Assembly (NCBI GenBank): GCA_000091205.1
Contig: AP006497.2
From: Cyanidioschyzon merolae
Lineage: Eukaryota
Reading direction: 5' to 3' (one strand)
Length of the DNA stretch: 64,000 nt
Each line of letters starts with the position of its first letter. The first letter of the stretch is position 1. Positions 1-50,328 of the stretch are shown one piece after another. Under the pieces are notes generated by a model. That model was not told the DNA's origin and did not search any database. It saw only the letters and a list, made by a program, of their open reading frames with translations. The translations under genes were made by a program, and so were the position numbers.

Positions 1-795
1 TTTTGCGTTTAGGGCGGGTATTCACGGGAGCGACAAGCCTAGATGCAACATTGCAGGGTAGCGTGTTCGTACCTAGAATGTCGAGGTCGTCTGCGCGCCA
101 TTTCGGTCCGCAAGCTAGCCTTTGCATCGTTGCTGATTAAAGCGCAAGGCGCTTGTTTGTTGATAAAGGCTGATGCAACGTCAACATCGGCCGTTGGCGG
201 TATTCCCGGCCCACCGCTTCTCGACAGCAGTGTTGGAAGAGCGGGATCGTTGTATTGCTAAACTCACTTAACTCCCCCATGGATCCGTGTCTACTAGGAA
301 AGCCCTATGGGCATCAGATATGAGGTGTGCCAGCACGTGCATTGGAGATAGTGGAAACGCCAAACGCCGAATAAATCAGCTTCTCCAGGAGAGTTCCGCC
401 CATGGGTGATGAAAGTGTCACCATCTCGTCTGGCGGTAAGTTCATGAAGAACCCCGTACTTGCATCGCAGTCGCTATGGCATCGTCTAGAACGCACAGCC
501 AGCTCATCGAATACGCAACTCAATAGGGAAATGCAGTCGCGATATGAAAACAAAGGTTATGTGGCGGGGAAGTCACTTATCCTAGGTAGAGCCCGAGTGG
601 CGCCCCAGTCTGGCTCTAGAACTCAAAGTGCAGCATTCTCATTTTTTCTCGCCGGCACGCCAGCTCTAACTTGTTCTCGAACCAGCGAAGATAGAAACGA
701 TATGACAGCATAGATGCGTTTGCAGACAACAAAGTCTGACGGAGTGCTATTTTTTAAAGCTCGTACCATTTTCAGCATAAAATGGATCAGGTCAT

Positions 796-2152
796 CGAAA
801 ACGGGCTCACACACGACACTTTGGGTCACTTGCCAGAGCAATCAGCACCGGCCTCTGCGACGTATTTCTCTGGTGGCTTGCTTTCCCTCCATCTGATCTC
901 CAGCTTCAAATACACCGGTCGCTCGTCACGCTCCAGCTCCATGCACAGCAGTCGACGGTTGTCGATGGCAGCGTTCAAGACCCGATCTCGCTGGCTGCAG
1001 CTGTTGTTTACGCATTTCATGCCGAGGCAAAGGTCGCGATCTGCGCCTCGCTTGCCAGGCTCCTCCTCTATGTGTACGGCGTCCGCGCGCCCCGAACAGC
1101 CACGACACGTGGCAACGGCGAGTCGTTCCCGTAGGCACACACGACGACCCCGCCGCCGACTGCCGGCCTGCGGTGCACGACCGCCCGCTTCATCGCCCGG
1201 GACATGCCCTTGACGGGTCCGGAGAGCTCCGGTCGATGCCGGCCACGGTTTTGCCGCGCCCGATGCCCTACTCCTCGATCAAGCACGTCGTCGGGACGAC
1301 GCTTTTGCTGAATGCACTGCCCGCTGCACGCCCGAGCACACGCGCTTCCATTGGATGAGGGATCCGTGGAATGCGATGTGGTCCCATGAAGAAACAAGCA
1401 CCAGAGACAGAATCCTGGCTCGGGAACGGGTCGAGGGATTTCCACTCGCCGACGCTGCCGTTGTGCGAAACGGCTAGGCATGCTGGAATGGACACGATCG
1501 CTGCGATAGTTCAGGCCAGAGTGCAGCACCCGTTTCGGTGCGAGCGGCACCGCCGGGAGCCTGCTGGAGCGTATCCCGCGAGACGTATCCTGTTGCTGTC
1601 GAATGCAGCTTCATCGATAGTCGGGAAGACAGCAGGGTTTTTGTTTTGAGGGGAATCGATTCGCGAACGTTTGACGGGTCATTGGGTTTGGATGTGAGCT
1701 TTTGAATGGATCTTCAAGAAGCGACGACAAGTTTTGACCGCCGTCAACGCAGTGGCGCAGGTTGCTGTGCCCCGCCTACACGGCGTCCAGTAGGTCGATC
1801 GATGACTTGAGGAATGCGTCGTTTGCATATGCTAAACGCAGGGAGCGGAGAAACGCGAGTGCTTTTGCCCATGCATTCGATCATCATACAGGTATTTACG
1901 AATCCCAGTGTTATCGTGTGTCGCGAATTCGCTTGATCCTGGTGAAGAACCGATGTTGAGCGGCAAAGCGCCGAGGGCGTCATTCGAAGCCCTCGACCAA
2001 GCATCTTAGAACTACACATGACTCCGCAAATTCCCGGTGATGCATCTTGAATGTCGAATCTGTGCATCCTGATCAAGTTGGAATTGAATCGGAAGGCAGT
2101 AATAGGGGGCAAGCAGTTCAGTGTTCCAGTTTTATCTGACACTGCAGCCGAG
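796..2152. repeat. Left arm of a ~1.36-kb inverted repeat; pairs with 4539-5893
   Basis: The reverse complement of 796-2152 matches 4539-5893 at roughly 97-98% identity by eye. ORF-track proteins on opposite strands are near-identical: 1744..2217(-) vs 4459..4947(+), 1068..1550(-) vs 5141..5623(+), and 782..1213(+) vs the C-terminus of 5478..6536(-). The identity breakpoints 2152 and 4539 were read directly from the sequence. Confidence 0.8.
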
Positions 2153-2342
2153 CCGCGCGATGACGCACGATGCTCCAAATCGTCGCCCGCTCTACTCGTG
2201 CACTGGTGATACGACAAGAGGCGCTGAGTCGGAGACCGAGAAGCATAGCCATTGACTGCGCCTACGCAAAAACCTCTTGGGACTTTATCCTTTTCTCGAG
2301 CACCTTCCTGGAATAAAGCTGCTGTTGAACAGTTACGAAAGG

Positions 2343-4145
2343 ATGGTGGTTCTCGCGATCGCTATTTTGAACAAGCTCGGCCGGCTACTGATTTCTCGTC
2401 AGTTTCGTGAGATGCAGCGGACCCGCGTCGAAGGTCTACTCGCCGCTTTTCCGAAACTTTTGGAAAACGAGATGACACGGAGTGGGGAGAATCGCCAACA
2501 CACGTTCCTCGAGTCGGACACGGTTCGCTACGTATACCAGCCAGTGGAAAATCTCTATGTGGTGTTAATCACGAACAAGACGAGCAATATCGTCCAAGAT
2601 CTTGAGACGCTTCGTTTGGTCAGCAAGTTGCTCGCAGAGCTCAGCCCGATCGTGGGAGTGATCGATGAAACCGCCGTATACGAAGCAGCTTTCGACTTGA
2701 TCTTTGCCTTTGATGAGGTCATCGACTGGGGCGGCTACGCAGAGGCCGTGAACGTGCCTCAGATTCGTCAGTATCTCGAAATGTATAGCCACGAGGAGCG
2801 CTTAGCAAAAATGATCAAAGAGAGCAAAATGCATGAGGCGAAAGAGGAGATGCGTCGAAAGGCGAATCTCATTGAGAAACAGAAGCAAGACCTTGCGAAA
2901 CTGCCGCCCGAGATACGACGCCTCATGGGCCTTGAAGGGAGCTCAGTTTCGGCAGGCTCTGGCGCGCCTGCAGTGTCTACCGGTGCGTATTCAACGGGGA
3001 ATATGCGAGGATTCGGGCCCCAAGACTTTTCTGGTGCTCTCGGAGGCAGCACTCTGCTTGGCGATGTTGGACCTGCTCCGTCCTTGACGCTGGGCGCCAC
3101 CAGAATAGCAGCGGACCAGTCGGCAAGCATCACGGTTTCAGCCGGAGGCCGGGGTCTGTCTCTCGGGAAGCCAAAGGCTCGCACCGAGGACTGGATGGCG
3201 CACCTGCATGCTGAGAGTGAAACATCTTCCGCAGATGCGCAACGCTCGCGCGTTACTCCCGATCATACGGAGCCTACAGCGTCGCAACGAGCTGCGAAGA
3301 CAGTCCCGTCCGAATCCGCCACTCGAGCGGTTGCAACATCTTCAATCCCTGCGTCTGATTTCCATCTAACGACCGAGGAGAAGCTGAGTATATCACTCAC
3401 TCGTGACGGTCGACTCGAGAGCTTTCAAGTACACGGCGAGCTTCTCCTTCAGATACGCGATCAAAAGCGGGCACACGCTCGCATCCGGCTGAAACCGCTT
3501 CCGGAATCGATGATGCAAAAGGTGCAGCTGCGACTGCATCCGATGTTGGATCGTTCGCTTTGGCAACAGTCGTGGGTGCTCGCACAACGCAACGCGGAGC
3601 GCCCGTTTCCCTATGGTAGCCCGACGCCAATGAGCCTGATCAAGTGGCGTTTTCAGTCCACTGATGAGAGTCTGCTGCCTGTGCTTCTGACCTGTTGGCC
3701 AACAGTCTCCAGTGATGAGACGTCGATGACGATCGAGTATGAGATGATGTCTCGCGCATCGGTTTCCTCAGACTTGTGTCCTCCGTCATCGCTGTCTTCC
3801 GTGCAGGTGCACGTACCGTTGCCGCGAACAGCAGTACAGCCTGGATTCTTCCAGTTGACACGTGTGGACGGCCGTGCAACGCTGGATGAAGCCGCCGCTG
3901 CCGTGCTTTGGACGTTGCCTCCGCTGGAGGCGCCCTGTAGCGGTGCGCTAGAGTTTACGATTGCAGCTGTAGAAAATCCCGAGCGTATGTTTCCGATTCA
4001 AATACAGATATCGGCCACAGAGGTTTATACGAAGCTTGAAATTTTGCGGGTGGAGGTGGCGACATCCCCAGAGTCGGTGCCAACGGAGGAGACGGCGTTC
4101 ACGCAGGAGCATCGCCTGCTCACCGATCGATTCGAGATTGTATGA
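2343..4145 (+). CDS. Coatomer (COPI) delta subunit (delta-COP)
   Basis: The N-terminal longin-like region MVVLAIAILNKLGRLLISRQF...QHTFLESDTVRYVYQPVENLYVVLITNKTSNIVQDLETLRLVSKLL is colinear with metazoan and fungal delta-COP. The C-terminal mu-homology-domain-length tail is present. The track starts at TTG 2277; the first in-frame ATG is 2343 (MVVLAIA). Confidence 0.85.
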   Translation: MVVLAIAILNKLGRLLISRQFREMQRTRVEGLLAAFPKLLENEMTRSGENRQHTFLESDTVRYVYQPVENLYVVLITNKTSNIVQDLETLRLVSKLLAELSPIVGVIDETAVYEAAFDLIFAFDEVIDWGGYAEAVNVPQIRQYLEMYSHEERLAKMIKESKMHEAKEEMRRKANLIEKQKQDLAKLPPEIRRLMGLEGSSVSAGSGAPAVSTGAYSTGNMRGFGPQDFSGALGGSTLLGDVGPAPSLTLGATRIAADQSASITVSAGGRGLSLGKPKARTEDWMAHLHAESETSSADAQRSRVTPDHTEPTASQRAAKTVPSESATRAVATSSIPASDFHLTTEEKLSISLTRDGRLESFQVHGELLLQIRDQKRAHARIRLKPLPESMMQKVQLRLHPMLDRSLWQQSWVLAQRNAERPFPYGSPTPMSLIKWRFQSTDESLLPVLLTCWPTVSSDETSMTIEYEMMSRASVSSDLCPPSSLSSVQVHVPLPRTAVQPGFFQLTRVDGRATLDEAAAAVLWTLPPLEAPCSGALEFTIAAVENPERMFPIQIQISATEVYTKLEILRVEVATSPESVPTEETAFTQEHRLLTDRFEIV

Positions 4146-4538
4146 GAAAGCACCTGCCTGGTGTAAGCGTTTTTTTTTGCATTCGCGTGGTCTCGTAGAA
4201 ATATGCCTCCGTGGACGCCAGTATGCGTCATGTTGGGCGCGTCGATATTTTGCGGCAAAGTGCGGCTCGATCGCCAGTCTGGGAAGCTGATGCACCAACG
4301 CACTAGTAGTGGATGCTGCGATTCAGAATAAGCGCCTTTTATATCGGTGGATCGATGCTTGGTAGCCGCATAGGGGTTCCGCTTCGTATACCAGGTGGGT
4401 CTGATTCACCTCCGGAAACCAGAGCAGGATCTACACGAAATCATGTAGGAGGATTACCGTGGACATTACGATCCAGAAGAATTCTGCACGTATTCCCCAT
4501 GATTCAGGGATGAGTGCGAATGTACCCGACCCGGATGC

Positions 4539-5893
4539 CTCGGCTGCAGTGTCAGATAAAACTGGAACACTGAACTGCTTGCCCCCTATTACTGCCTTCC
4601 GATTCAATTCCAACTTGATCAGGATGCACAGATTCGACATTCGAGATGCATCACCGGGAATTTCCGGAGTCATGTGTAGTTCTAAGATGCTTGGTCGAGG
4701 GCTTCGAATGACGCCCTCGGCGCTTTGCCGCTCAACATCGGTTCTTCACCAGGATCAAGCGAATTCGCGACACACGATAACACTGGGATTCGTAAATACC
4801 TGTATGATGATCGAATGCATGGGCAAAAGCACTCGCGTTTCTCCGCTCCCTGCGTTTAGCATATGCAAACGACGCATTCCTCAAGTCATCGATCGACCTA
4901 CTGGACGCCGTGTAGGCGGGGCACAGCAACCTGCGCCACTGCGTTGACGGCGGTCAAAACTTGTCGTCGCTTCTTGAAGATCCATTCAAAAGCTCACATC
5001 CAAACCCAATGACCCGTCAAACGTTCGCGAATCGATTCCCCTCAAAACAAAAACCCTGCTGTCTTCCCGACTATCGATGAAGCTGCATTCGACAGCAACA
5101 GGATACGTCTCGCGGGATACGCTCCAGCAGGCTCCCGGCGGTGCCGCTCGCACCGAAACGGGTGCTGCACTCTGGCCTGAACTATCGCAGCGATCGTGTC
5201 CATTCCAGCATGCCTAGCCGTTTCGCACAACGGCAGCGTCGGCGAGTGGAAATCCCTCGACCCGTTCCCGAGCCAGGATTCTGTCTCTGGTGCTTGTTTC
5301 TTCATGGGACCACATCGCATTCCACGGATCCCTCATCCAATGGAAGCGCGTGTGCTCGGGCGTGCAGCGGGCAGTGCATTCGGCAAAAGCGTCGTCCCGA
5401 CGACGTGCTTGATCGAGGAGTACGGCATCGGGCGCGGCAAAACCGTGGCCGGCATCGACCGGAGCTCTCCGGACCCGTCAAGGGCATGTCCCGGGCGATG
5501 AAGCGGACGGTCGTGCACCGCAGGCCGGCAGTCGGCGACGGGGTCGTCGTGTGTGCCAACGGGAACGACTCGCCGTTGCCACGTGTCGTGGCTGTTCGGG
5601 GCGCGCGGACGCCGTACACATAGAGGAGGAGCCTGGCAAGCGAGGCGCAGATCGCGACCTTTGCCTCGGCATGAAATGCGTAAACAACAGCTGCAGCCAG
5701 CGAGATCGGGTCTTGAACGCTGCCATCGACAACCGTCGACTGCTGTGCATGGAGCTGGAGCGTGACCAGCGACCGGCGTATTTGAAGCTGGAGATCAGAT
5801 GGAGGGAAAGCAAGCCACCAGAGAAATACGTCGCAGAGGCCGGTGCTGATTGCTCTGGCAAGTGACCCAAAGTGTCGTGTGTGGGCCCGTTTT
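4539..5893. repeat. Right arm of the ~1.36-kb inverted repeat; pairs with 796-2152
   Basis: See the left arm. The arm ends in ...tcatcgaaaacggg (reverse complement) exactly as the left arm begins. A 2386-bp spacer between the arms holds the delta-COP gene. Confidence 0.8.
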
Positions 5894-6237
5894 CGATCAG
5901 CCGGGATACCGTTCTTCGCTTTCCGACATTGATGTGAAAAGCGCGTACCGTTCCGTTCTTTCTTGCCCAGATATCGGTGACGATGCGTCCATAAGATGAC
6001 ACCCGTAGAGACCAGATACGATCACAATATCCGGTTGGCATGGGCCCCCACATCTCGCACAAACGCCCCCTGATGTTACTGGGTCGTTCTTTGAGCGCTG
6101 CAGCGCTGACGACCGGCTCCACCCGGAAACCGGCATTGCCTCTTTGCCGATGTTTATCGTTCGTGTGAGACGCTCTTCCAAAAAGCCGTAGGTGTTCTGG
6201 ACACGCGTCCCAGCCTAACACGCGATTTTGATAGAGA

Positions 6238-9024
6238 ATGGAGCGGTTGCTGACCGCCATTTCAAGATTGAAGCTGGGCACGCATCCCCAGGTCAGTTCG
6301 GTGGCTGACCACCAGCTGAAGTCTTCGGCAGCGGCGCTTTCGCGGACGCTATGCAGTACCAGTGACGGTACGCGCCTTTTCTTGCTTGGGGCAGACGGCG
6401 GGCTCTGGCTGACGAATGCCGAGGAACTGTGGCGTTCTGCACAGCGGCTCGGCGAAGAGTCGCGAACGGAGTTCTTCGTGAGCAGCTCTGGAACGCTGGG
6501 GACTCCCGTACACTTGACTCCAGCGTTACGCTTCAAGCCGATCGCTTGCGCGCTTTCGAGCTCGGATCGATTTCTTGCTCTTTATGACGAGGAGTTTTGC
6601 GCGGTTGTGGACCTCCAAACAGTGCCGAGTTCGCAGACTTGGCTGGATCAAATAGCCCCCGCACCTGTGACTGCACCCGCTGTGCTACTAGGTAGTCGAA
6701 CTAGTCAGAGGGCTGCTTTCACGCTACGAAGCATTCGCCAGGTAAGTTGGCATCCCTGGAGTGATGGACGCCTCGCTATCCTCTACGATGATGGCATGCT
6801 GGAGCTTTACGATACCTTGGAAGCTACGCTACCGGAGCAGACCTTGCGCATTCGCTTGCCGCTGTCGGGGAGTGAAGCACCTGCCGCAACAGGCGTCGAA
6901 GACACCACTGTTGCATCAGTCAGTATCCAGAACGTCTCTGGTGCGCTGGAGCAAACCGCAGGACAGCGCACATTGGTCAAAACTGAAGCTCCAGCGGCAT
7001 TCGCTTTCGGCCCATTAACGGAACCATCGGAATATCCTTGGGAGCTTGTCACGCTGTATTTGTTGCGAGAGTCTGATGGAGCGCTGTTTATTCTCTGTCC
7101 GTTTGCTCCTACTGGACTGCGCTTGCCCGCAGTGTGGGTAGAAGCTGTTCATGGTCAGCTGGAGACTGGAGCGCTCGCGGATACAGCAACTTCTTCGGCA
7201 GCAGACGCGACCACATGGGCCGAACTACAGATGCGTTTACGACGAGAATGGCTGGCACTCTGCACCAGTCGGCAAGCTCGTATGGATCTCGAGAGCCACC
7301 GCGCAGACTCCGAAAAAGCGCCTCCCGTATATCGTTTGCTTCGACCTCCACGCACCTTTAACATGCAATGGACGCCGCTTCTGCAGGGCCCGGTCCATAT
7401 CGAGCATGATGCTGCAACAGCAGCGAGTCATTGGGCACCCGCGTGCGGCATCCAGGTTCTTCCGAGCCCGCTAGGTCCGCTCCTGCTCCGTACCTGGTGG
7501 CACGGTGTTCTAGACGTGCTTGTCACTATGGAAAAGGTGGAACCTGTCTGGGCCCCGTCGTCAGAGTGTTCAGAACAGCTGCCCGCAGAGGAGGATGTTG
7601 CGCCATCGCTGCTTCTCTATGAGCGCATCTTCACGGGCGCTCCCTGTGCTCATTCGATCGTTGGCGAGAGCCCCACAGGGCTCTCCACGTCCTGTGCAGC
7701 AAACGATGAGCATTTACCACTTCCATGGGTGTCACCTGCGCAGACAGTGCCCCGTCTGCAACGCAGTGTGCTGCTCATACGCAGCCACCAGGGCGTCTCG
7801 GCCCTCTATTTGACGTGGCTGGATATGATCAGCCACGTGCTTTCCCCGAGAAGTTGGCCGTCTAGCTCGCTTTTCCATTCCGAACCGGATTCCAATGACG
7901 AGTTTATGGAAAGTGAGCAGCTTGAACAGCTGTTGGAGCAGTTGCCATGCTCCACGCTTGTGCAGTCGCTGGCGTCAGAGGCGGCTCCGCTGGGCCTCGC
8001 AGAGCTGCGCCTCCCCAGTACAGTGACACTTGTGAATGGCCCAGCCGCGAACCTGCTGCTTGCAATGGATGCTGATGGAGAGCACTTGCGAGCAGCGGCA
8101 TTGCACTGGTGGCGCTTACCGAGCGTGGGCGCGAGCCTCCGTTTCCCGCGCTCTTCCATGACTACGCGGGAACTCGAATACACGGATCTGGTGCACGCAT
8201 GTTCGCCGGCGGTGAAAGCAGGAGCAGCAGCAGCATCAACAACAACAACAACAACAGTAGCGACGAAAATACGTTCAGCATCGGGGCTAACGCCTTTGGA
8301 GCAAAAGCTCACGCAGGTATTCGGTTCCCTGGTGCCATGGCACACGTCCGGAGTCAGTCATGCTGCAGCGACAGGCGACGCGCAAGAACTTTGGGAACAG
8401 ACGCGAACGCTCGTTCTCCTTTGGCAGATGATACAGACGATTATCCAGCCGCTGCGACTTTTCTATGCACAAACGCTATCATCGACTATAGAACAGCTTC
8501 CTCTGAGACTGGAAACGAACGCACGTCAGTACAGCTACCTCCAACACCGCCTAGAAATGCTGCAAAGTCGAGCAAGAGACTTGGATCATCGCATTCGTAT
8601 CCTGGCGACAGGAATGAATGAAAATCTCCAAAAGCGCGCTGCAGGTCTATCGGAGCTGCTGCTGCATCGGAAACCTATGATCACTCCGCTGGAGCGCCAG
8701 TGTTTTCGCCAGCTCGAGCGCTATCGCGAACGCCTCTGCGAGTTCCAGCAGCGCCTTACGCAGTTACAACGGCAGGCTGCAGCGGCGCGGCAATCAGGAA
8801 GCAGGGCGCTGCCCGAGCTTGATATCAGGGAAGACTGGTCGCTGTTACGAAAAACCCAACAGCGTGAGATTCGTCAAGCTATCGAAGAGAACACCCGTCG
8901 TTTGGAACGGCTTTGCCAGGTTTCGCAGGAAACACGAGCGTCGATCGAGCGACTTGTGCATATGCACGACATGCGGTTCTCGTCGTTAACGGGAACGTGC
9001 AAAGACGACACTCGGATTCTCTAG
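6238..9024 (+). CDS. Nucleoporin Nup88/Nup82-like protein (divergent); beta-propeller-like N-terminus plus C-terminal coiled coil
   Basis: ATG at 6238. The blocks FLLGADGGLWLTNAE, IRQVSWHPWSDGRLAILYDDGMLELYD and AAFAFGPL...VTLYLLRESDGALFIL resemble Nup88 blocks (GGELFLWDG, AAWYPS...IRIY, AVAFDFGPL...YPLYILYENGE). The C-terminal about 200 aa is heptad-rich (LERQCFRQLERYRERLCEFQQRLTQLQRQ). Assigned from memory of the Nup88 sequence; moderate confidence. Confidence 0.5.
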   Translation: MERLLTAISRLKLGTHPQVSSVADHQLKSSAAALSRTLCSTSDGTRLFLLGADGGLWLTNAEELWRSAQRLGEESRTEFFVSSSGTLGTPVHLTPALRFKPIACALSSSDRFLALYDEEFCAVVDLQTVPSSQTWLDQIAPAPVTAPAVLLGSRTSQRAAFTLRSIRQVSWHPWSDGRLAILYDDGMLELYDTLEATLPEQTLRIRLPLSGSEAPAATGVEDTTVASVSIQNVSGALEQTAGQRTLVKTEAPAAFAFGPLTEPSEYPWELVTLYLLRESDGALFILCPFAPTGLRLPAVWVEAVHGQLETGALADTATSSAADATTWAELQMRLRREWLALCTSRQARMDLESHRADSEKAPPVYRLLRPPRTFNMQWTPLLQGPVHIEHDAATAASHWAPACGIQVLPSPLGPLLLRTWWHGVLDVLVTMEKVEPVWAPSSECSEQLPAEEDVAPSLLLYERIFTGAPCAHSIVGESPTGLSTSCAANDEHLPLPWVSPAQTVPRLQRSVLLIRSHQGVSALYLTWLDMISHVLSPRSWPSSSLFHSEPDSNDEFMESEQLEQLLEQLPCSTLVQSLASEAAPLGLAELRLPSTVTLVNGPAANLLLAMDADGEHLRAAALHWWRLPSVGASLRFPRSSMTTRELEYTDLVHACSPAVKAGAAAASTTTTTTVATKIRSASGLTPLEQKLTQVFGSLVPWHTSGVSHAAATGDAQELWEQTRTLVLLWQMIQTIIQPLRLFYAQTLSSTIEQLPLRLETNARQYSYLQHRLEMLQSRARDLDHRIRILATGMNENLQKRAAGLSELLLHRKPMITPLERQCFRQLERYRERLCEFQQRLTQLQRQAAAARQSGSRALPELDIREDWSLLRKTQQREIRQAIEENTRRLERLCQVSQETRASIERLVHMHDMRFSSLTGTCKDDTRIL

Positions 9025-11619: not shown

Positions 11620-12849
11620 GGCGGCTGGTGCTGCTGTCGCTGATACGACTGCAGGAGGCCGTTAGCGAGCAGGCGAGCGCCGGTCTCAGCAGGTCGCTGT
11701 GTTGACGGCAACGCGTTTCTTGCCCCGTTCAAATATGAAAGCCGCTATCCAGCACCTTTCAGGTGCACAAACTCTTCATCAAACTCGCATAAAGTTCAGT
11801 ATACTGGAACTGGAAACTCCGTTGCGGCACGTTGCGTCTGGTACGAACGGCCCAAGGCGTGCAACGCTGCTTCGATTCCGTTGCCATGGGGTGGCGATCG
11901 CTCGCCACGTCGCGCTCTTGTAGGCTCGTATCCAATGAACGTGTCACTCTGAACTGATCGCACTGATCTTGCTTTTCGATTTTGTTTCCGAACCTTTTCC
12001 TAGACGTAAAGCATCGCTATTCGGAGTACGTCAATACGGGCTTATGGATTCATGTGTAGTTATAGGGAGTCATGGTCGTCATTTACGAATGGCTTCTTTG
12101 GATCTCTGCTGCTGGAAATGATGAACACAACAGAATCAAGATGATCCGCAACGTACCCCTACAAGAGTTCGTGAAATACCTGAGATCACTATCAGATTTT
12201 AATGTACAAGCGTCCAGTCTGCTCCTTTCCGTACGGGTATGGCATGTTCAAATCATGCATTTTCCAAGTTCCTCTTTCGTTCTGTTTCAAGGCATCTCTT
12301 GGACGCTGCAATTCGGGTCGCCTTATTGACGAGAAAACATCCACGATATCGTATCTTGACAGCATTCGCACCTGCTTACGCCGAAATGTGAGTCAACTTC
12401 TGACGCTAAATAATCGATCCGGCTCGAAGGATAAATCTGGGTACCTTCGTGGTCATCGATGAAATGGCCTCCAACAGCACTTGGGTATCTCTCAAGGCAG
12501 ATGCTGCCCGGTGCTTCCATCTCTTCTGTTTGCCTGGAAATGCGCGTCGGGCCCGGACATGAGTCATCGGAGCGAGCGCGTCGAGTGCAGCGTACGTCAC
12601 TGCCTTGCACAAAGGGAACCTAGAAGCATCGACATTGCTCGACGTGCTCCCCGGCCTGGATATTCCTTCCCGTGCTGTGTTTCATCACGGGCAACGCCAT
12701 GCCCTGCACATCCTCTACCGAACCGTGTTGCGTGCGCTCGCAAGTGCAGCCGACCGAGTACTTGCCGAACGTAGCGATTAGAGGAGGCCGCAGAACGCGG
12801 GGTGCGGCACCAGACGCCGATGCAGAAAGCGCGCCCAACCTATCGTCAG

Positions 12850-13260
12850 GCACCCGTCGAGGGAATGTAACGTGCGGTAAAGTAAGCGTTTGTGGGCCAC
12901 ATGGCGGAACTCGGAGGAGGACCTTTTATGGACAGATGGGAACACCTGATCACAGTCAACTGCCACCACTGCCAAGGGTTCACCGAGCATGCATACAAAG
13001 GAGATGAAAAAAAACAAGCGAAATATAGATCGCAACTTCCGCCTCTGCATGAAATGCGTTGAAAACAGATCGAAGCTACGAAAACGGAGCTTGAACGCTG
13101 ACATCAGCATCCTGCAACTGCTTATCACGAAGCGGGACGGAGACGAGCGACCAGCATATTTAAAGCCGGTGATCCGAGAGAATAAAACGAAGCAGTCATG
13201 GCAAAAGTTCGCACGAAGCTGATGATGACGACACACAGAGGAGACCCGGAACTTTAGTAT
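12850..13260. repeat. Diverged partial copy (about 65-70% nt identity) of the sequence family forming the inverted-repeat arms
   Basis: The blocks catgaaatgcg, cttgaacgctg and gagcgaccagcatatttaaagcc align with right-arm 5640-5800. Translated similarity appears in both strands' frames (FKYAGRSS...LMSAFK...HFM vs FKYTGRSS...SMAAFK...HFM, and CMKCVEN...DERPAYLKP vs GMKCVNN...DERPVYLKL). The boundaries are approximate. Confidence 0.5.
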
Positions 13261-14273
13261 GCATACACGAGTTACTGAACCCGTTCCATTTCTTATTCTG
13301 ACATGGATGCAGGCTAGCAATATGGGAGCTACGATTCGGATTGTCCAAAGCTGGTCTGCGACGACGAGCCTGAAACAAGATATTCGGACGACAACGCCAT
13401 AGGATCAAGATGTGTCAGGCGAGGATGTGGCGACGCGTCATCGATAAAATACGCTTCGTCTATTCGCGCTAGACCCACGGTTCTTTAAAAGGAGTAGCGC
13501 ATATAGCTGCTTGAAAATCTTACCTAGCCTGAACTCATTCATTTGCTTTACAATATGTAACCGCTGGACCTGATATCCCTGATTCCCTAGCTATCGTGCT
13601 TCGAATGTTGCGAGCAGCTCAGCCGGCCGCTGCTCTCGTAAAAAACAGAGCAGAGCAACTGGACAAGAGCATCCTCCACCGACTGTTTACTGGTCGCTAG
13701 CTAGTGCACAGGTTGGTTTCGGCGAGTTGACGCTAGCAAGCCCGGAACGCTGCCGGCGTTGACAACTACCACGCTTGGCACTTTGACCTTAAAGAGAAGC
13801 TCCAGCCTCGCGCCCCCAGCTCCAAACCCGTTCGCTGCGCTACGCTCTGTAACCGACAAACTGGACTGCTTTAGCTGACTCGGCCGTATTCACCGTGATT
13901 TCAGGATCAGCTCTGTGTTCATCTGCTCTCTCTGCCGGCAGAAAGCCTGACTGGTATCCTCGCGCTAGACATGGGTTCAGGGCGCAGCGCACGACCATGA
14001 CCTTAGAAGCGCTTCAACGATCAGCGCAGCTATCGCGGAACACCATTTTCTGACCAGGTTTTCTGGCGTGTGTTTTCGAGCCAGCTAGACATAAGGCCAA
14101 GTCTCGACAGCCACGCACCGACTCTAACGAAAGAAGTACCACCAAGGCAAGTTCATCGCGAAAGGTTCGCTAAAGACCTGCAAGGAAAACTCACACACGT
14201 AGGCGTGTCGCTGTTGCGGTACGCTGTGAGCTAGCAGCTCGCGCAGCGAGCTACGCATATCTTCAGGCTCTTG

Positions 14274-16469: not shown

Positions 16470-17411
16470 TCACGCTGTGAACCAAGCACTCGTTGCTGAT
16501 GGCTTCTTCTCGCCAAGCTGTGCCACAAGTTGCTCGCGCAGAATGGGATACATAGCAACTGCAGCCTGTTGCGCACAGCAAAATGCCTTTGAGAAGCTCT
16601 CCGGAGCACGAATATCGTCGACTGTGCTGTCATCCCGACGTCGTTGGCTCGTGGCACCACGCCACTGCAGATCTGCAGTTAGGCCCAGATTCGGCAACAG
16701 AGCAACCCATAGACGCCCTTCGTGGGCGCTGGCTTCCTCTTCCGATGTTGGAAAAGCGATGCAGGTCTGCTCTGTGCCTGCATACCCCGGTGTCGCGTTA
16801 ACGGCGACAGAGACGCCGACAAGTGCATCAACGAGCGCGACCCCGGCATCTAGACAAGCGGCCCAGGCCGCGGTTGTTGCAAGCGCAAGTTCACTGCCAC
16901 CCTCCTCCAGAACCCAGATATATACCCAGAACTGTAGTCGTGGGTATTCAGTGCGAGCGATGACACACTCGAGGGAGCGCGTTAGCGCCGCTGCGAACCT
17001 TCGCTCCGTTTCGCTGAGCGTAGCGCGTCCGCGCGAGGGTGCCCAGCGCTGCTCGTCCGATTCTCCACCGGCAAACTGGAGTCCAGTGGATATCGTATCT
17101 GATTCTAGCGTCTGTATTGATAACGGGCGGCTTGAGAGCCCCTGGCGGTACTCCACGACCACGGTTGCCAGCTCAGTGTCGGTGTCGGTGCTCCCCTGGG
17201 GCGGCCGCGGTCCGAATACCGCAGCCACGACTTTTGTCTTCCCTAACTGGCAAACAGCGCTGCCCTCGGGCCTGGAAAGAACGCCCAACTGGCAGCGGAA
17301 CGACTTCATCGCATACTTACGTACTTGGCACGCGTCCTTGAAGGCACGGCGAAGGCCTGGAGCGCTATGTACTTGGGCGGCGGTTGGTACAACCACGAGC
17401 ATTTTTTTCAT
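16470..17411 (-). CDS. Exosome complex RNase PH-like subunit (Rrp41/Mtr3 family)
   Basis: ATG at 17411. GLRRAFKDACQVRKY...FRCQLGVLSRPEGSAVCQLGKTKVVAAVFGPRPP matches the RNase PH-domain N-terminal consensus (DGR..ELR...G.L..ADGSA..E.GNTKV.aaV.GP). Confidence 0.7.
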   Translation of the reverse strand: MKKMLVVVPTAAQVHSAPGLRRAFKDACQVRKYAMKSFRCQLGVLSRPEGSAVCQLGKTKVVAAVFGPRPPQGSTDTDTELATVVVEYRQGLSSRPLSIQTLESDTISTGLQFAGGESDEQRWAPSRGRATLSETERRFAAALTRSLECVIARTEYPRLQFWVYIWVLEEGGSELALATTAAWAACLDAGVALVDALVGVSVAVNATPGYAGTEQTCIAFPTSEEEASAHEGRLWVALLPNLGLTADLQWRGATSQRRRDDSTVDDIRAPESFSKAFCCAQQAAVAMYPILREQLVAQLGEKKPSATSAWFTA

Positions 17412-17696
17412 TTTTTCTCGATTTCACGAGATGTTGACATAGGCCAGCGTTCCTCGACGGTGCGCCTGATATCAGCGCGCGGTAAAGCATCCATTGATCC
17501 AACTACTTCCAGGTTCAATATTCTATACTTCATCTCGGATATACTAGTCGTCTCATACGTACTATCGTGTGCCGCGTGCCTGGCGTAATCGTCCGCGATA
17601 TAGCGCCCGTACCGTCGGTGCGGATGCAGCACGGAGACAGAACGACTCTGGCGCGCCCCAGAGTGCGTCAGCTCGAGCGCGTAAACTGATACCCAC

Positions 17697-18053
17697 TCAC
17701 TGGCGCTTCTCCGGTTTTGTTGACCCGCAGACTGCAGTCGGTTTCAGTTTGTCCTGGCAAACTTCGAGACTGGAAGGCTGCCCCACGAAGATGGCTAGCA
17801 TCAGCTCCGCAGGTCTTTTCTTCAGCACTGCACATCGCCTGATATTGATGGCGGTATTAAAGCCCCGGCTAGAGAATTCCATGTGTTGATTGTCGCTGGT
17901 GGAACTCATGAATGCGAGAATTGCGAGAACTCGTGCCCGCTGTGCCGTTTTCTGCTCTGTAAGCGCCACCTGCTTTTCTATCGTTGAGGCACTCCGCTGG
18001 CTTTTCTCCATCTCGAATTTCTGAAGTGTGCGCCCCAGCTCATCCCTCGGATT
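17697..18053 (-). pseudogene. Decayed 3'-terminal relic of a TnpB/Fanzor-like (RuvC-III region) gene
   Basis: Minus-strand translation DELGRTLQKFEMEKSQRSAS...RVLAILAFMSSTSDNQHMEFSSRGFNTAINIRRCAVLKKRPAELMLAIFVGQ...KLKPTAVCGS aligns residue by residue with the C-terminus of the 38590-40557 element: HELGCTLQRVEIEKCQRGPE...RELLALVYTTSDGKKRMEFVNRDLNAAINIRRSAVMGKRPPELTGENFVGQ...KMKPVVGGQS. The catalytic Asp of RD.NAA.NI is Gly here. Both Cys are replaced (C->R, C->S). An in-frame stop lies at 18054. Confidence 0.55.
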
Positions 18054-20093
18054 TTAGGTTTCTTTGAAAGCAATGAAATTGTTTATGGCCTTAGGTGAGG
18101 ACCGTCCCCGAGGGAGAGCGACTGGAAGAAGAAAGACGACACGTGTCCAGGTGTCACCGTGTGCTGAACACTTCAGCGAATCACTCTGTGTAGCGATCAT
18201 TATATTTCACGATAGAAATCACTCCGCTTTATTGGGTTGAATCACGCAGAGCATGTGAGAATGAAAAGCAGATCTACCCCGGAAAGAATCAGCAAAAGCC
18301 CAAACGCACGGGGGATGGTGAAACGCCACGTTGTCCAGTAGAAGGACGTCGTTAGACATCGAGGAATAGTCTTCAATGATTGGACAAAGTGCGTGCCGTC
18401 GTTTGAGCCTTCTCCACGAGCGAAACCGAGGCCACGAAATGAATCCATTGCCGCTCGAACAGAGGATGTCGTCGTTCTATTCGAGTTCGATCGTACATAC
18501 AACATGCTTCCTCGCCGCGAATCCCCATGTACGCTCCGACACTTTCGTCCGAAGCAAGTCCCATTGACTGAAACAAAATACCAACATCGCTGTGCGTCAT
18601 AACGATCGCGACATTCCAGGAACGCTGTCGTTGCGACCTCGGTGAAAGATGGCTGTGAATGAACGAGGACTCTTTTTTTGCGACTGTTTCCGAGTGATTT
18701 CAGGACCATACGAATAAGGTGCACCGGAACGGAAATGGCCTTGGATGCGACGATTGTCGCATTTGCTCTCCGTTACCTGTTCAAAGGATCGTTTCCCGCC
18801 ATTGACATCAAGCGCGCTTTGAGAGTGTCGGTTTGTTTTTCGCGGAACGCATATCTTTCTTTCTTTCAGTGTTCCTAAACCACATGAGTACGGTCGTATG
18901 AATAACCGAAGAGGAATGCAGTCCTCCTTACATTCTTCAGTAAAGAATATATCCTAAAGGCAAATCGTGAGCAATCTATACGGCACATTGCATCGTGAGT
19001 AAACCGAATTCAGTTGTAAGGCTATACCGCATTTGGATTATACACCTCGTTCGATTCACGGATCATCATGTACCACTGCAACGGGCGGCGGTTTTCTCAC
19101 CGCCACGAGAAAATGGTATCCGTGCCAAAAGACAGTCCAAAAGGATGCTTCCTTCAGATACTCGGCGCGCCTTTGTTCTACAGAGTTGTCCATGTCGCGT
19201 ACTATTCCGCCTCTGTGCCGAGTCCCGCGGCCATTTTCTTGAAGAGGGATTCTGGAATAGCGCCTGGCTCTCGCACCGATGCATCGCAGCGCTGGAACAA
19301 TGCCATCGGTGACGCTGTTGGACGCAGAGGTGCCCCGAGTATGCACACTGCTGCTCATATTTCTTGAGTCTGTCAGCTGTTTTAGGTGCTTCACATGTAA
19401 TCTAAATGCACATCGATTGATGCGCACGCAGATGCCAGAGACACGGAAATTCGATGTTTATTCCGCGTGCGATTATGGAGCCTGTCCAGAGATCTACTGG
19501 ATGCACGGGCGTTACTGGTCGGAAAATTGATGGACCCTGCTTGCGTCTGGGACACGGCCCGCAACACACTTTTCTCTGGTGTGGAACGCCCACATTTGCA
19601 TGTGAGTTGTCCTTTCAGGTCCAGCGTGCGTAGCGCTCGACGCCTGGTTCATTTCATGTACAGGGGCGTCTCTGGTGGCCGCTACAGACTCCAGTGACTG
19701 CGTTAGGATGCCTCCCGGCCGCGATACGCAACCTGTTTACATCGGCGCCAGCGTCTCCAGATGAACGACATGCCGGATGCTCGGCAATCGATTCGAGTAG
19801 CGAGGTGCTTGCACGCTCTGCACGGCAACGCTCGACACTGAAGCAAGCGGTTTGCGTAGAAGTTTCCGTGCGCGCACCAGTCTCAGATAAGTGTATCCGT
19901 GGCGGCTGCTACAGTTGCTGAAGCATCGCGCACAGGAATGATGTCTCTTTGTCATGTACGACTGGAAGCGATGACTCTCAAATAACGCTCCTCTGGGACG
20001 CGGCGAACCGACAGAAACCAAGACACTTGTGTATCGCTACCAAATCGGCATCTGTTCCCACCTGGTGCGATTGTATTCTCAGGGCATCAATGA

Positions 20094-23447: not shown

Positions 23448-25676
23448 TCACGCGACAGCCTGTGACGCTCGAGCCGGATCCAAATGCAGCGCATATTCGA
23501 GTCCATCTACCAGGGCATTCACAGATGCAACGATAATATTCGTATCCGCTGATACGGTCGTAAATCGTAGACCGCGTTTTCGGTCATGGAAAGAAACCAA
23601 GACTCTAGTGGTTGCGGCTGTCGCCGATTCCGAGTCCAAGATCCTGACTTTGTAGTCTTCTAGACTGATATGCTCGAGCTCGGGGAACGATCCCAGAAGC
23701 GCTCGACGCATTGCCGCGTTGACCGCGTCTACCGGGCCGTTGCCTTCCGCACACTCGAGCGTTGGTGCAGCACCATGCACGAGTACCTTCACAACAGCAT
23801 GGGTGTGCGTCTCGTTCCGCCAGACGGCCACAGAGGGATCTCGAGCAAGTGCCCTACGGCTATTTCTTTCGGGTATCTGAGCGCTCGGCAGAGGTGTTAC
23901 GAATAGTGGACCACCCGTTACCGGTGCCGCAGTACCATCGCGGGCGCCTTCCGAGAGCGATCGGGCAAGCGGTTCCGAAAACCAGCTATCTTCAGCATCC
24001 TCTGGGTCTTCGGGTGTAAAACAACCCTCCTGGTTCACATACAAAACGCGTTTGTTACCAGTGAAGACGGAAAAATCGACAAGTTCGAACGGCGCCACAT
24101 AATTGGGAACCGCTCGACGCCACATCATCGCTAGCGATGCCTCGGCGCCTTCGAACGTGAATCCCTTGTTCTCCAGCGCCTTGATACGCTCGAGTATCTT
24201 GGTAATACGCGCCTTCCAAACCGGATCGCGTTCATCAAAGGCGAGGTTCAAGGAGCGCAGTTTCGATTGAATGTTACCGCGTCCGCTGAGTTCGCTAACG
24301 AGTACTCGTGGCCGATTGCCCACCAAAGCGGGATCAATGAACTGGTAGCTGCGAGGGTCTTTCAGCATAGCGGCCACGTGGAGACCGCCTTTGTGCGCAA
24401 AAGCGCTCTCACCAACGAATGCACGCCATGGAACGTGCGGGCGATTCGCAATTTCGTCCACGAAGCGAGACACTGCCGTCAAATTCTGCAAGTGCGTCGT
24501 TGAGGCTACTACGGAATACCCCAGTCGCAGCTGCAAGATCGGGATAATCGACATGAGGTTGGCATTGCCAGTACGCTCACCGTAGCCGTTGACGCAGCCT
24601 TGGAGCAGCGTGGCGCCCCCGCGCACAGCTGCAATGGAATTCGCTACCGCCAGTTCCATATCGTTATGGCAATGGATACCCAAACGAACACCAGGTGACG
24701 ACTCAAATCGAGACTGCACCACACGCATAACATTTTCGACGACCCAGGGTGTAGCAGCGCCATTCGTGTCGCAAAGCACAAGGACGTCTGCGCCGGCCTC
24801 TACTGCCGCTTCCAAGCACTGCATCGCGTACGAAGCGTTCGCTTCATAGGCATCGAAAAAGTGCTCTGCGTCGAGCATGACCTCCCGTCCAGCTGCTTTG
24901 AGATACGAGACGGTGTCCCGAATCATCCGGATGTTTTCATCCAGACTCGTGCCGAGCACCTGCAGAACCTGAAAATCCCAGGTCTTGGCGACTATGGTTA
25001 CGGTGGGCGTTTCAGCGCGCAGCAGCGACCCTAGTTGCGGGTCCGCGTCGCAGGGAGTCCCTTTGTGTCGCGTTGCACCGAAAGCCACCAACTTTGCGTT
25101 ACGCATGCGCGGCAACAGTTCCTGCTTTGCCCGCAGGAAGAATTGTTCGTCCTTGGGATTGGATCCGGGCCAACCAGCTTCGATATACGCCACGCCAAGT
25201 TTCGCATCAAGCTCCGCAGCGATGCGCAATTTATCTTGGCAGGAGAGCGATATACCTTCGCCCTGGGTGCCGTCGCGGAGTGTGGTGTCGTAGATCTGGA
25301 TGTTCAAACCAGCGGTAGGTTGATCTAACGCATCCTTCCGGCCTTGGTCAACGTGCATGCAAGGCTGCCTAAGCAGAGACTCGGAGGCGTACTCGAACGC
25401 GGCACGTCGGCTTGTGCGTTGTATTCGATTGCGAATAGTCGAGCGACGCTTTCCGTGATTCCACTTCCCGGTATCGAAAGAAGAAAGCGCGACAGGTTCT
25501 GCTGAGAGGCCACGCCAGCGCCAGTAGACCGGAAGGCAGAACGCAGTTGCAGGGCGATGGTGATGAGTGCGCACACGCGCACGCGGCTGAGCGCACTGAG
25601 CCCAGCCAAGACCGAGTCCGTCACGACCTCCGCCGCTCGATCCAGAACGACACCACATCCCGGTCAGCAGCAGCAT
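23448..25676 (-). CDS. 2-isopropylmalate synthase / (R)-citramalate synthase family enzyme (HMGL-like), with N-terminal presequence
   Basis: IYDTTLRDGTQGEGISLS...GWPGSNPKD...GIHCHNDMELAVANSIAAVRGGATLLQGCVNGYGERTGNANL are classic LeuA/CimA motifs, with a C-terminal LeuA-dimerisation-length region. The track start is TTG at 25796; the first ATG is 25676 (MLLLTGMW...), preceded and followed by a Leu/Arg/Ser-rich presequence. Confidence 0.8.
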   Translation of the reverse strand: MLLLTGMWCRSGSSGGGRDGLGLGWAQCAQPRARVRTHHHRPATAFCLPVYWRWRGLSAEPVALSSFDTGKWNHGKRRSTIRNRIQRTSRRAAFEYASESLLRQPCMHVDQGRKDALDQPTAGLNIQIYDTTLRDGTQGEGISLSCQDKLRIAAELDAKLGVAYIEAGWPGSNPKDEQFFLRAKQELLPRMRNAKLVAFGATRHKGTPCDADPQLGSLLRAETPTVTIVAKTWDFQVLQVLGTSLDENIRMIRDTVSYLKAAGREVMLDAEHFFDAYEANASYAMQCLEAAVEAGADVLVLCDTNGAATPWVVENVMRVVQSRFESSPGVRLGIHCHNDMELAVANSIAAVRGGATLLQGCVNGYGERTGNANLMSIIPILQLRLGYSVVASTTHLQNLTAVSRFVDEIANRPHVPWRAFVGESAFAHKGGLHVAAMLKDPRSYQFIDPALVGNRPRVLVSELSGRGNIQSKLRSLNLAFDERDPVWKARITKILERIKALENKGFTFEGAEASLAMMWRRAVPNYVAPFELVDFSVFTGNKRVLYVNQEGCFTPEDPEDAEDSWFSEPLARSLSEGARDGTAAPVTGGPLFVTPLPSAQIPERNSRRALARDPSVAVWRNETHTHAVVKVLVHGAAPTLECAEGNGPVDAVNAAMRRALLGSFPELEHISLEDYKVRILDSESATAATTRVLVSFHDRKRGLRFTTVSADTNIIVASVNALVDGLEYALHLDPARASQAVA

Positions 25677-26055
25677 CAGTAGCAGCAGCCGTAGGAGTGG
25701 TCGTGCGCAAACAAACACAAACACACGAGAGAACGGTACACCCGAGAAACGTGTCGTGCGGCCACGAGTCCCAGGGAGTCGACGAGTTTCCAGCAATAGC
25801 TTTCGTCACGATCGCACCCAAAGGTAGATGTTGGCCAGCTGCGTCCAATCCTTTACAAAACCTTCACGTTTTAGACTATCCGCGTACACCGCACCGCCCT
25901 AGAGGCTGCTCGTACGCACCGCAACTCTTCCGTCGAAGCGAAAAGCACTACCACTACTACCACCACCACCAAAGAATCTCGCAGTCAAGGTGCTCGATGC
26001 AGGTACAAGTGCCCGGCGGCGCCGGCGTGCTACCCGAAAGCCTGGATCACAGCGC

Positions 26056-26089
26056 GCCTGCCTGCCTGCCTGGCTGCCTGCCTGCCTGG

Positions 26090-26124
<35 letters not shown>

Positions 26125-26182
26125 GCTGCCTGCCTGTCTGCCTGGCTGCCTGCCTGCCTGCCTGCCTGCCTGTCTGCCTGCC
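26056..26182. repeat. (CCTG)n tetranucleotide microsatellite with CTGG variants, about 127 bp
   Basis: gcctgcctgcctggctgcctgcctgcctggctgcctgcctgcc... is seen directly, between the LeuA-family gene (minus) and the VKOR gene (plus). Confidence 0.9.
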
Positions 26183-26245
26183 GGCGCGCCGCGCACCCCC
26201 GTCGCGCACAATCGCAGCAGCGATACGCTGCCGCCCCTGAATTGC

Positions 26246-26272
26246 GTGTGTGTGTGTGTGCGCGCGCGCGCG
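26246..26272. repeat. (TG)n(CG)n alternating purine-pyrimidine tract (Z-DNA-prone)
   Basis: gtgtgtgtgtgtgtgcgcgcgcgcgcg. Confidence 0.9.
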
Positions 26273-26338
26273 ACGGGCGGGTATCGCGGCGTCGACGACG
26301 CAGTCACCGGCCCGGGCATCGCGTTCATGGACACGAGG

Positions 26339-26365
26339 CCGCTGCTGCTGCTGCTGCTGCTGCTG
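26339..26365. repeat. (GCT)8 trinucleotide repeat
   Basis: gctgctgctgctgctgctgctgctg. Confidence 0.9.
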
Positions 26366-26508
26366 GGATGCGCACGCGCAATCATCCACGGTGGGTGCGG
26401 AGAGGCAGCGCGTTTGCGTCCATGCTTCAGGGGTTGTTCAGCGACGCAGAATTCCCGTAGGTTACAGCCGGGTTGGTTACGGAGATTAGCTGCACTACTG
26501 AAGGAGGC

Positions 26509-27894: not shown

Positions 27895-29699
27895 CTACAC
27901 GAGCATACGCGCTTTTGACCTGCATGGATCCATGCAGTACTGGATCGTCAATGATGACACGCCCTATGTTGTCCAGATAAATGCTCGAGGCCCATAAAGG
28001 CAGGCGCCTAGCCCAAGCAGGTACCGCCTGGACATGCATGCCTCGCGAATGCTTCGTGTTTGATGAGTACACAAGTGGCGTTTCGTATGCGGCAGGCAGG
28101 TCGATGCGCTCGCTAGCCGCGGACGTTGTGCCTTATCTTCCATGTGGACGGGCGTAGAGAAAACCACACCACGTATCTCGATCGAATAGCTCGAGCTGCC
28201 TGATTCTGCGTTCAGCATGTTTCCCAGATACCATGCGCGTGAAACCGGGCTCATTGCTGAGTCCCATATGTGCTGTGCACCCGATCATGGGAGAATCCGC
28301 GCTGCGCAAAAAACTAGCCACAGTGCTTGTACGACCGCGGTGATCGAGCTTGCGCGTCATTCTCTTTCGGGGCTGGGTGATTTTGATCCATATCACCAGC
28401 GACTCGGGCACCGTTATGTGCGTAGGCGAGCACGTGACGGAAGCGATCCAGCATCGCAGCACTCGTGACTCTGTCGCTCACGTTTCCTCCGTCGATCACG
28501 TGGCTGGGTCGATTCGCGTGTGTAGCGCTTGTCCGGCGACGATGACCGGAATCGAATGGCCAGTACGATTGCTCTGGTTCCTACTCGCCGCTTTGCACCA
28601 CACCGATATAAAGAGGGCTCATAGTGTCCGTTCTGCACATGCAGTCGCCATACTCTGGCTGTCTGATTGGTTGGTTGGCTTTACGGCTGATGCGCACGGT
28701 TCAGGCAGTTGCGGTATGCGTCCCATACGCGGACTCGACCTGCGCTTGCCCTGCCCCACCGTCAAACAAATCCACGAGCATCGCATGCCTAGCGCTGCCT
28801 GCGTAACCGGGGCTACGCTCGCGGCAACGCCCGTCGGTATTTCGCATCAGGAGGCCTCCGGTGTGAAGGGCACGCGATTTCACCCCTGAATCCGATCCGG
28901 ATCCAATGTGGTACATTCGCGAGCGATACCATCCAAACAGCAAGGGAGATTGACTACATGGGATCATGCGTGCGTGGAATCCTCGGGATGCAGCAGCTGG
29001 CGTCGCGGCAACGTCCCGTTCAGCTCCAATGCAGTGCAGACGTAGCGCTGAAAGAGGCATGCCTTCGGCGAAGTCTGCTTCACCAATGCTGCGATCGCAT
29101 GTGATGAACGGGATCACTCTAGCACACGCGATGATGACTTCCTCGTACTACGCGCAACAGCAGTGACACAGGCCTGCGTTGATGACTCCAAAACACCGCT
29201 GAGAGCGCTGGAAGAACGCATGATCATGAGACGGCCATACAGATGACCCTTGTTTGACGGCAACAGGCTTCCTTTCAAAGCCATCCGTGCAATGAAACAA
29301 AATAGGATCTCTGACATGGTTTGACCCCAAACGAAGTCACCCAGAACCTCCAGTGAGGCATCGGTGTCGCGGTGCACAGCACACGCGTTGCATGTCGCAC
29401 TTTTCGGATAACGGGGTTTATCAATATTTGCGCATGATTCGCTGCACTGTATCCAGTGCTTCACATATGGATCATGCGCGCGTTCAGCGGAGAACCCGCC
29501 ATGATGGAAAAATTCCGTGAGTGCCGCACCTGGAATCCGTTTCGATATCCTCTGAAAACTTAGCCTCGTGCTCTGCACATAAAACTTAGGATGCATGGTC
29601 ATAAGCACGCATGCTAGGCTAGTCAGTAAAACAAAAAAAAAGTTTAACGTCCATGGACTAGAAGTATATCTACCCAATGCAGACGCCTCCCAGCCTTTT

Positions 29700-50278: not shown

Positions 50279-50328
50279 GCTGACGACTGCTTTCGACTTT
50301 TGAAAGGCGTTTGCTAGCGGTGTAAGCG

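Follow-up and report, generated by a model that had tools for sequence, protein, structure and literature searches.

Introduction

Inverted low-copy repeats give rise to polymorphic inversions, and gene conversion homogenises their arms; examples are the 11.3-kb repeats on either side of FLNA-EMD in human Xq28 and the palindromes of the primate X and Y chromosomes. Long repeats also drive inversions in compact yeast genomes (Candida albicans), the inverted repeat of the plastid genome undergoes flip-flop isomerisation, and site-specific invertible segments are represented by the Hin, Gin and Fim switches and by the yeast 2-micron FLP/FRT system. The present text concerns a window of 64,000 nucleotides (nt), that is, the whole stretch of DNA that was analysed, from chromosome 15 of the finished Sanger genome of Cyanidioschyzon merolae 10D, a red alga, in which two near-identical inverted arms enclose the gene of the coatomer delta subunit (delta-COP). 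With a probability of roughly 0.7 these arms are two units of an old dispersed repeat family that have been homogenised by gene conversion, and the delta-COP cassette between them is probably invertible.

The delta-COP repeat has both the structure and the concerted evolution of inverted repeats that are maintained by gene conversion. As in the mammalian low-copy repeats and palindromes, long near-identical inverted arms surround a unique spacer with an intact gene, the arms evolve in concert with GC-biased substitutions, and a dedicated recombinase is absent. The mammalian spacers occur in both orientations among haplotypes, which at delta-COP is seen in short-read contigs only. In contrast to the mammalian cases, the arms (1.36 kb) and the spacer (2.4 kb) are much smaller, the locus is situated in a very compact algal genome, that of a haploid laboratory strain, and the arms are units of a dispersed repeat and not gene-containing segmental duplications. 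The long repeats of Candida albicans are likewise inverted repeats of kilobase size, often intergenic or repeat-derived, which mediate inversion by homologous recombination; those cases, however, were documented by long reads and experimental evolution, whereas the evidence for delta-COP is comparative and metagenomic. The plastid inverted repeat shares arms that are kept identical by conversion and a single-copy region lying in either orientation, but it belongs to a multicopy organelle, its arms extend over tens of kilobases with rRNA genes and its isomers are equimolar in each cell, while the delta-COP locus is single-copy and nuclear and its arms are non-coding. Site-specific invertible segments are also bounded by inverted repeats and able to invert, yet they use short sites and an adjacent recombinase and switch expression, unlike the delta-COP locus with its long arms, self-contained gene and no recombinase.

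Structure of the locus

The left arm was placed at 794-2152 (plus strand) and the right arm, its reverse complement, at 4539-5897 (minus strand) by a repeat search and base-by-base comparison. Each is 1359 nt long, with the outer ends at 794 and 5897 and the inner ends at 2152 and 4539, and they are separated by 10 mismatches and no indels, giving 99.26% identity. The mismatches correspond to left-arm positions 807, 914, 924, 1133, 1153, 1184, 1268, 1309, 2027 and 2048. All four edges are sharp, identity just outside them being at chance level, and a 1359-nt match at 99.3% cannot be of chance origin. This pair is the only long inverted repeat of the 64-kb window. The original prediction, which was made from the sequence letters, had given the arms as 796-2152 and 4539-5893 with 97-98% identity; the structure is real, but the arms turned out to be slightly longer and more similar. 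Its further statements that the breakpoints are sharp, that the loop carries delta-COP only and that the arms hold no open reading frame (ORF) or domain were all borne out.

The unique loop (2153-4538, plus strand, 2386 nt) consists of a 190-nt 5' flank, the coding sequence of delta-COP (2343-4145, plus strand, 600 amino acids) and a 393-nt 3' flank. Delta-COP, an essential gene, is the sole gene in it, and the left arm lies upstream with its inner end 190 nt from the start codon. The product carries Pfam Adap_comp_sub (adaptor mu-homology domain, E 4e-19), its best homologues are delta-COP proteins, and it is identical to the C. merolae 10D "coatomer protein complex, subunit delta" (BAM81555.1 / XP_005537591.1).

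The repeat is not confined to one assembly. More than 30 metagenome contigs with about 99% identity to 10D display the arm-flank and arm-loop junctions, and contigs of many JGI, ENA and Logan assemblies end at an arm or within it, or run through it. At least 8 of the metagenome contigs (about 2.2-2.8 kb) consist of the loop with 50-220 nt of arm, as contigs that break at a repeat should, and three contigs (L003, L004 and L036) each contain both inner arm ends as inverted copies. The contigs found through an ORF of the left flank all stop 30-360 nt into the arm, which is consistent with a repeat and silent on its orientation. It is highly improbable that the reference itself is in error, through collapse or mis-joining of the repeat or through a loop placed in the wrong orientation. 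The one circumstance in favour of such an error is that most arm-crossing environmental contigs show the orientation opposite to the reference. However, the 10D genome has been finished from telomere to telomere (PMC1955436), the reference orientation is that of the conserved synteny of relatives, with which contig L023 agrees, and independent assemblies reproduce both arms and every type of junction. The assembly artefact that had been suggested earlier as an explanation was thus not upheld: the genome is a finished Sanger sequence, and the junctions reappear in independent metagenome assemblies, where some single contigs carry the two inner arm ends together.

Sequence exchange between the arms

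The arms exchange sequence: the two arms of 10D differ less from each other than from the arms of other strains. There are 10 differences between the left and right arm of 10D, as against 14-29 when either 10D arm is compared with those of three other haplogroups; from strain to strain the arms are about 2% different. In arms free of exchange, the difference within a genome would be at least as large as that between genomes; the opposite is seen, and this requires conversion. The argument from paralogues and orthologues would remain valid if the metagenome arms were consensus sequences of collapsed arms. A polymorphism at arm positions 151 and 153 (CC or GT) is found on arms adjacent to the left flank and on those adjacent to the right flank alike. 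The 10 mismatches of 10D are clustered and leave a central stretch of 718 nt identical (p=0.006), as would be expected of a recent conversion tract; they are private to 10D, and no left/right phasing of the metagenome contigs is possible from them.

The direction of substitution was compared by three-way parsimony with c2 and c3, two diverged copies of the same family in the window. The ratio of AT-to-GC to GC-to-AT changes was 116:64 in the arm lineage, 67:87 in c2 and 72:101 in c3, and the arm bias differed from that of c2 (Fisher p 2e-4) and of c3 (Fisher p 2e-5). The GC content is 57.7% in the arms, 50.7% in c2 and 49.8% in c3. The AT-to-GC excess and the higher GC content of the arms appear to form the pattern expected from long-term GC-biased gene conversion, and should be treated as indicative only. 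Efficient homologous recombination of nuclear DNA is known in C. merolae, and a chromosomal allele is reported to have undergone gene conversion (PMC3764038). Taken on comparison of sequences, the near-identity of the arms seems better explained by gene conversion than by youth.

The mechanism that we infer starts from two paralogous units of an old, lineage-specific, non-coding repeat, which would occupy both intergenic spacers of delta-COP in opposite orientation. Intrachromosomal homologous recombination would keep the 1359-nt interiors near-identical by non-crossover, apparently GC-biased gene conversion, and crossover resolution of arm recombination would invert the 2.4-kb delta-COP cassette. 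Delta-COP has its own 190-nt 5' and 393-nt 3' flanks within the loop and meets the same arm sequence on both sides, so that either orientation is expected to be equally expressed and the inversion to be neutral. The hazard for replication posed by such an inverted repeat is probably small with a 2.4-kb spacer.

The repeat family of the arms

Each arm is a unit of a dispersed, non-coding family of about 1.35 kb. The copy c2 (11919-13270, minus strand) is full-length, collinear with the arms and about 56% identical to them (nhmmer E 3e-83), and its inner end is 300 nt upstream of the start of a JmjC gene. The copy c3 (51469-52738, plus strand; about 54% identical, nhmmer E 4e-67) sits upstream of a protein-kinase gene at 53185. 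A fragment at 40557-40880 (plus strand), covering unit positions of about 959-1312 (nhmmer family profile, E 8e-31), borders on the 3' end of a repeat of the Fanzor1 type and is situated upstream of a leucine-rich repeat (LRR) gene at 41056. An additional copy was found with nhmmer at an unrelated locus in ENA contig L038 (E 2e-117). On the inner side, the inverted repeat stops where the family unit ends. No near-identical copy beyond the two arms was noticed in the window or in a 36-mer scan of the metagenomes, the nearest relatives being about 55% identical, and the outer 36-mer of the arm was present in 9 contigs of the metagenome collection, all of them at the delta-COP locus (arm joined to the left or the right flank).

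The arms hold 5-15 stops in each frame and no open frame, and across all family copies the number is 5-21 per frame, every frame being closed. Pfam searches with arm ORFs and six-frame arm translations gave no match, as did Rfam at E<=1 and a tRNA scan of the arms; there is no period-3 conservation among family copies, and an exact-product look-up of the arm ORFs returned no record. A hidden gene in the arms, whether protein-coding or a structured RNA gene, was rejected on these results (ORF lists, six-frame stop counts, Pfam domains, Rfam, tRNA scan and codon periodicity, all negative). Supplementary tables on H3K27me3 contain no entries for locus tags CMO199-CMO204. The right arm is without an annotated protein: the ORF at 6238-9024 (928 amino acids) is CYME_CMO203C of 10D (928/928 identical), the JmjC product of the window matches BAM81557.1 exactly, and CMO203C is bracketed by BAM81555 and BAM81557. 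The arm is situated upstream of CMO203C, with its outer end (5897) at a distance of 341 nt. An exact-product look-up of CMO203C, like that of the arm ORFs, gave no record.

The family copies are only 54-56% identical, yet they are collinear with very few indels (for example 1322 versus 1322 aligned nt). This conservation of length lacks an explanation, given that no coding, periodicity or RNA signal is present. Between-strain density of single-nucleotide polymorphisms (SNPs) in c2 is 1.4-1.7%, the highest value of the region; coding sequence has 0.1-0.4% and the other spacers have 0.5-1.0%. The family looks unconstrained. In four of the five copies the inner end is 190-450 nt upstream of a gene start, the right arm being the exception to this pattern.

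Such an arrangement raises the thought of a programmed invertible switch, or of a pair of regulatory or RNA elements (promoters, insulators, a 1.36-kb hairpin transcript) that selection keeps alike. The position of the four inner ends before gene starts would suit it, and the collinear, almost indel-free alignment at about 55% identity hints at a constraint on length. The proposal is nevertheless quite unlikely: there is no recombinase gene in or near the loop, whose neighbours are the Pentapeptide, nup82-like and JmjC genes, delta-COP is complete inside the loop, and the arms have no Rfam match. Moreover, the SNP density of c2 is the highest in the region and the arms are about 2% different between strains, while the right arm breaks the rule that the inner end faces a gene start.

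The family was matched to no described transposon, nor to the C. merolae repeats of PMC1955436 or PMC3627910. The genome appears to hold an old non-coding repeat family which could be matched to none of the C. merolae repeats described there. The original prediction had allowed that the arms might prove to be copies of a known dispersed transposon: dispersed copies do exist according to nhmmer, but none is matched to a described transposon and the inverted repeat stands. We infer that the family is lineage-specific and that the repeat is of old date and was not rebuilt recently.

Family homology extends about 25-40 nt past the outer edge of the inverted repeat on both sides. The left-flank remnant (750-793, plus strand) comprises the last 25-44 nt or so of the flank and is c2-like and unlike the right flank; the nhmmer alignment reaches 750, and local alignment of the left flank to c2 is in register (p about 0.007 against shuffles). 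The right-flank remnant (5898-6027, minus strand) covers the first 40-130 nt or so with weak homology to c2; here the nhmmer alignment reaches 6027 and the local alignment is roughly in register (p about 0.04). Local alignment of the left flank with the right flank was not significant. These remnants suggest either that both sites held family copies before the interiors became identical, or that an old inverted repeat has eroded at its edges.

The flanks also bear on whether the repeat is simply young. In that case it would have arisen in the recent past by inverted duplication or by two insertions of an active element, exchange between the arms would not be going on, and the opposite junctions in the contigs would be an arbitrary resolution by the assembler. 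The identity of 99.3% and the sharp edges agree with this, the arm edges nearly match those of the family unit as for insertion of a discrete element, and assembler ambiguity is real, since many contigs stop at or inside the arms. The explanation is nonetheless unlikely. The repeat has the same edges in every strain sampled, and 10 differences within 10D against 14-29 between strains would be impossible without exchange; the clustered mismatches, the AT-to-GC excess in the arm lineage and the diverged family sequence in both outer flanks also speak against it. In addition, no active source element is visible in the window or the metagenome scan, in which the nearest relatives are about 55% identical. 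The recent inverted duplication that had been considered earlier has to be corrected: the arms are units of an old dispersed family, whose homology continues past the outer edges into unlike flanks, and conversion explains their near-identity better than youth.

Relatives without arms

The locus was compared with Cyanidiococcus yangmingshanensis (contig L010) and with a third lineage (contigs L011-L015). In the relatives the genes follow one another as Noc2 (minus), Pentapeptide (plus), delta-COP (plus), nup82-like (plus), JmjC (minus) and Prp19 (plus), the same order and orientation as in 10D. The spacers of delta-COP in the relatives measure 560-805 nt and contain no inverted repeat, and blastn, tblastx and the family profile detected no arm homology in the spacers of L010-L015. 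The corresponding spacers of 10D, at about 2490 and 2092 nt, exceed these by roughly the length of one arm apiece. Since gene order and orientation are conserved in armless relatives, the 10D orientation of delta-COP is the ancestral one. On the same comparison the arms are lineage-specific additions, and no mobile element brought delta-COP to its place.

A foldback or composite transposon which captured delta-COP between long terminal inverted repeats would display the topology that is seen, namely an arm from outer to inner end, a cargo and an arm from inner to outer end, and the arms do belong to a dispersed family. Such an origin is scarcely credible all the same, and the foldback-type element named in the original prediction has to be given up. 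Delta-COP occupies its ancestral place and orientation between the Pentapeptide and nup82-like genes, and the order Pentapeptide, delta-COP, nup82-like, JmjC is kept in two armless lineages. Target-site duplications are absent around the whole structure and around either arm; terminal inverted repeats and LTR-like (long terminal repeat-like) repeats are absent within the arm, as are sub-repeats (no internal repeat longer than 24 nt). No transposase was revealed by Pfam searches on ORFs and six-frame arm translations, and the outer-arm 36-mer occurs at the delta-COP locus only.

Orientation of the cassette

Contigs that cross an arm fall into two groups. The inverted arrangement is present in the short-read contigs L001 and L002 (and five similar ones), L019, L032, L033 and L034, which run from the 3' end of delta-COP through the arm to the left flank, and in the short-read contig L031, which runs from the right flank through the arm to the 5' end of delta-COP. 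The junction of L031 and that of the L001-type contigs are the two ends of one inverted arrangement. The reference arrangement is represented by the short-read contig L023 and by the 10D reference. An inversion polymorphism fits the two groups, and short-read assemblies suggest it without proving it; the odds that both isomers are real can be put at roughly even or slightly better. The idea that the arms can mediate inversion of the gene, which was already part of the original prediction, gains from the independent contigs that join the loop to its flanks in both orientations, although with short-read assemblies it does not reach proof.

Several points weigh against the reading of two converted family units around an invertible cassette. 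The arm-crossing contigs are all short-read assemblies, which are unable to span 1359 nt, and collapsed arms give the same assembly graph for both orientations, so that the path taken may be arbitrary. Nine contigs of about 11 kb come from one sample series and one pipeline and may count once; the 151/153 allele beside the left flank varies among them, which suggests unphased arms. Counted by independent series, there are about 3 inverted cases against 1 reference case, and this is not significant. The neutrality of the inversion is an assumption. The family homology past the outer edges is short and of marginal significance (p 0.007 and 0.04), and the substitution test is parsimony on an alignment of about 55% identity, in which a regional GC effect unrelated to conversion is possible.

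Two further observations concern the contigs of the left side. Gene calls from dozens of metagenome and Logan contigs include an ORF of 103 amino acids at 402-713 in the left flank, which forms a cluster of 7 variants, one of them present on 31 contigs; it has no Pfam match and is not named among the 10D entries examined, and it may be either a conserved small gene or an artefact of gene calling. Four contigs from different samples (L001, L002, L032 and L033) have near-coincident right-hand ends at about 11.1-11.2 kb, beyond the Noc2 gene, which suggests that a further repeat, or a point at which assemblies break, lies about 6.6 kb left of where the window begins.

Contacts with Fanzor1-like elements

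The interspersed repeats described in C. merolae are CMe-1A, a Fanzor1 element of about 3 kb in about 150 copies, and TE-N2_CMe (PMC3627910), as well as a "WSV486-like" repeat with 253 copies (Nozaki 2007; PMC1955436). Since Bao and Jurka in 2013 listed Fanzor1 in white spot syndrome virus (PMC3627910), CMe-1A and the "WSV486-like" repeat may well be the same, a link stated by neither paper. The window contains a direct repeat, whose copies at 38653-40561 and 48374-50282 (1909 nt, 99.0% identical) lie 9.7 kb from each other. Both are frameshifted elements of the TnpB/Fanzor-like type, each with a residual ORF of 327 amino acids and the motifs IDAFRTS and NRDLNAAINI (RuvC-like). Older fragments of the TnpB/Fanzor-like family are situated at about 17395-18065, 29655-30194 and 63461-63742, and at least 136 related protein clusters of the TnpB-like element are found in metagenomes. 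On account of the RuvC-like motifs and the description by Bao and Jurka (2013), the direct repeat most likely belongs to the CMe-1A Fanzor1 family (PMC3627910). Profile searches of its protein against PDB, NCBIfam and Pfam gave nothing above threshold, apart from a faint Cas12f1-like TNB match (E 0.15), and its AlphaFold model (predicted local distance difference test, pLDDT, 35) is too poor for a fold search, so that the TnpB/Fanzor assignment is not formally confirmed.

The arm family resembles CMe-1A and TE-N2_CMe in being dispersed, old, intergenic and devoid of terminal inverted repeats and target-site duplications. Unlike CMe-1A, it has no open reading frame, and it shares no sequence with the CMe-1A-like copies of the window. 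Membership of the arms in CMe-1A was rejected, as they match neither the copies at 38653-40561 and 48374-50282 nor the family proteins, the comparison having been made with the copies of the window and not with the Repbase consensus. The single arm match among CMe-1A-like proteins is the tail of one ORF, itself read from an adjacent unit of the arm family.

At two unrelated loci, in the window at 40557-40880 and in contig L038 at 6426-7555, DNA of the arm family is immediately adjacent to the 3' end of a CMe-1A-like element. The geometry of contact differs, running from unit position 959 to 1312 forward in the window and from 1145 to 20 reversed in L038, and the contact may reflect nested insertion or a target preference. 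A bolder thought is that the arm family serves as a preferred landing site or a working partner of the Fanzor1 CMe-1A elements, with their TnpB-like RNA-guided nuclease, and that breaks made by the nuclease drive the homology-directed repair which homogenises the delta-COP arms. This is a long shot: the two contacts are what invites it, and no guide-like match of 20 nt between the 3' flank of the element and the arms was found, the best being 16/20.

As a separate feature of the window, a long microsatellite of the (GCCT)n type with GCCTGCCTGGCT variants is situated at 26004-26210, inside overlapping ORFs at about 25547-26545.

Significance of the locus

The current understanding of the behaviour of inverted repeats is left unchanged by the delta-COP repeat, which is a clean but ordinary case. 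For practical work, short-read assembly and read mapping will mis-handle the locus, and constructs targeting delta-COP or its neighbours may recombine with either arm. [quoted passage not shown]

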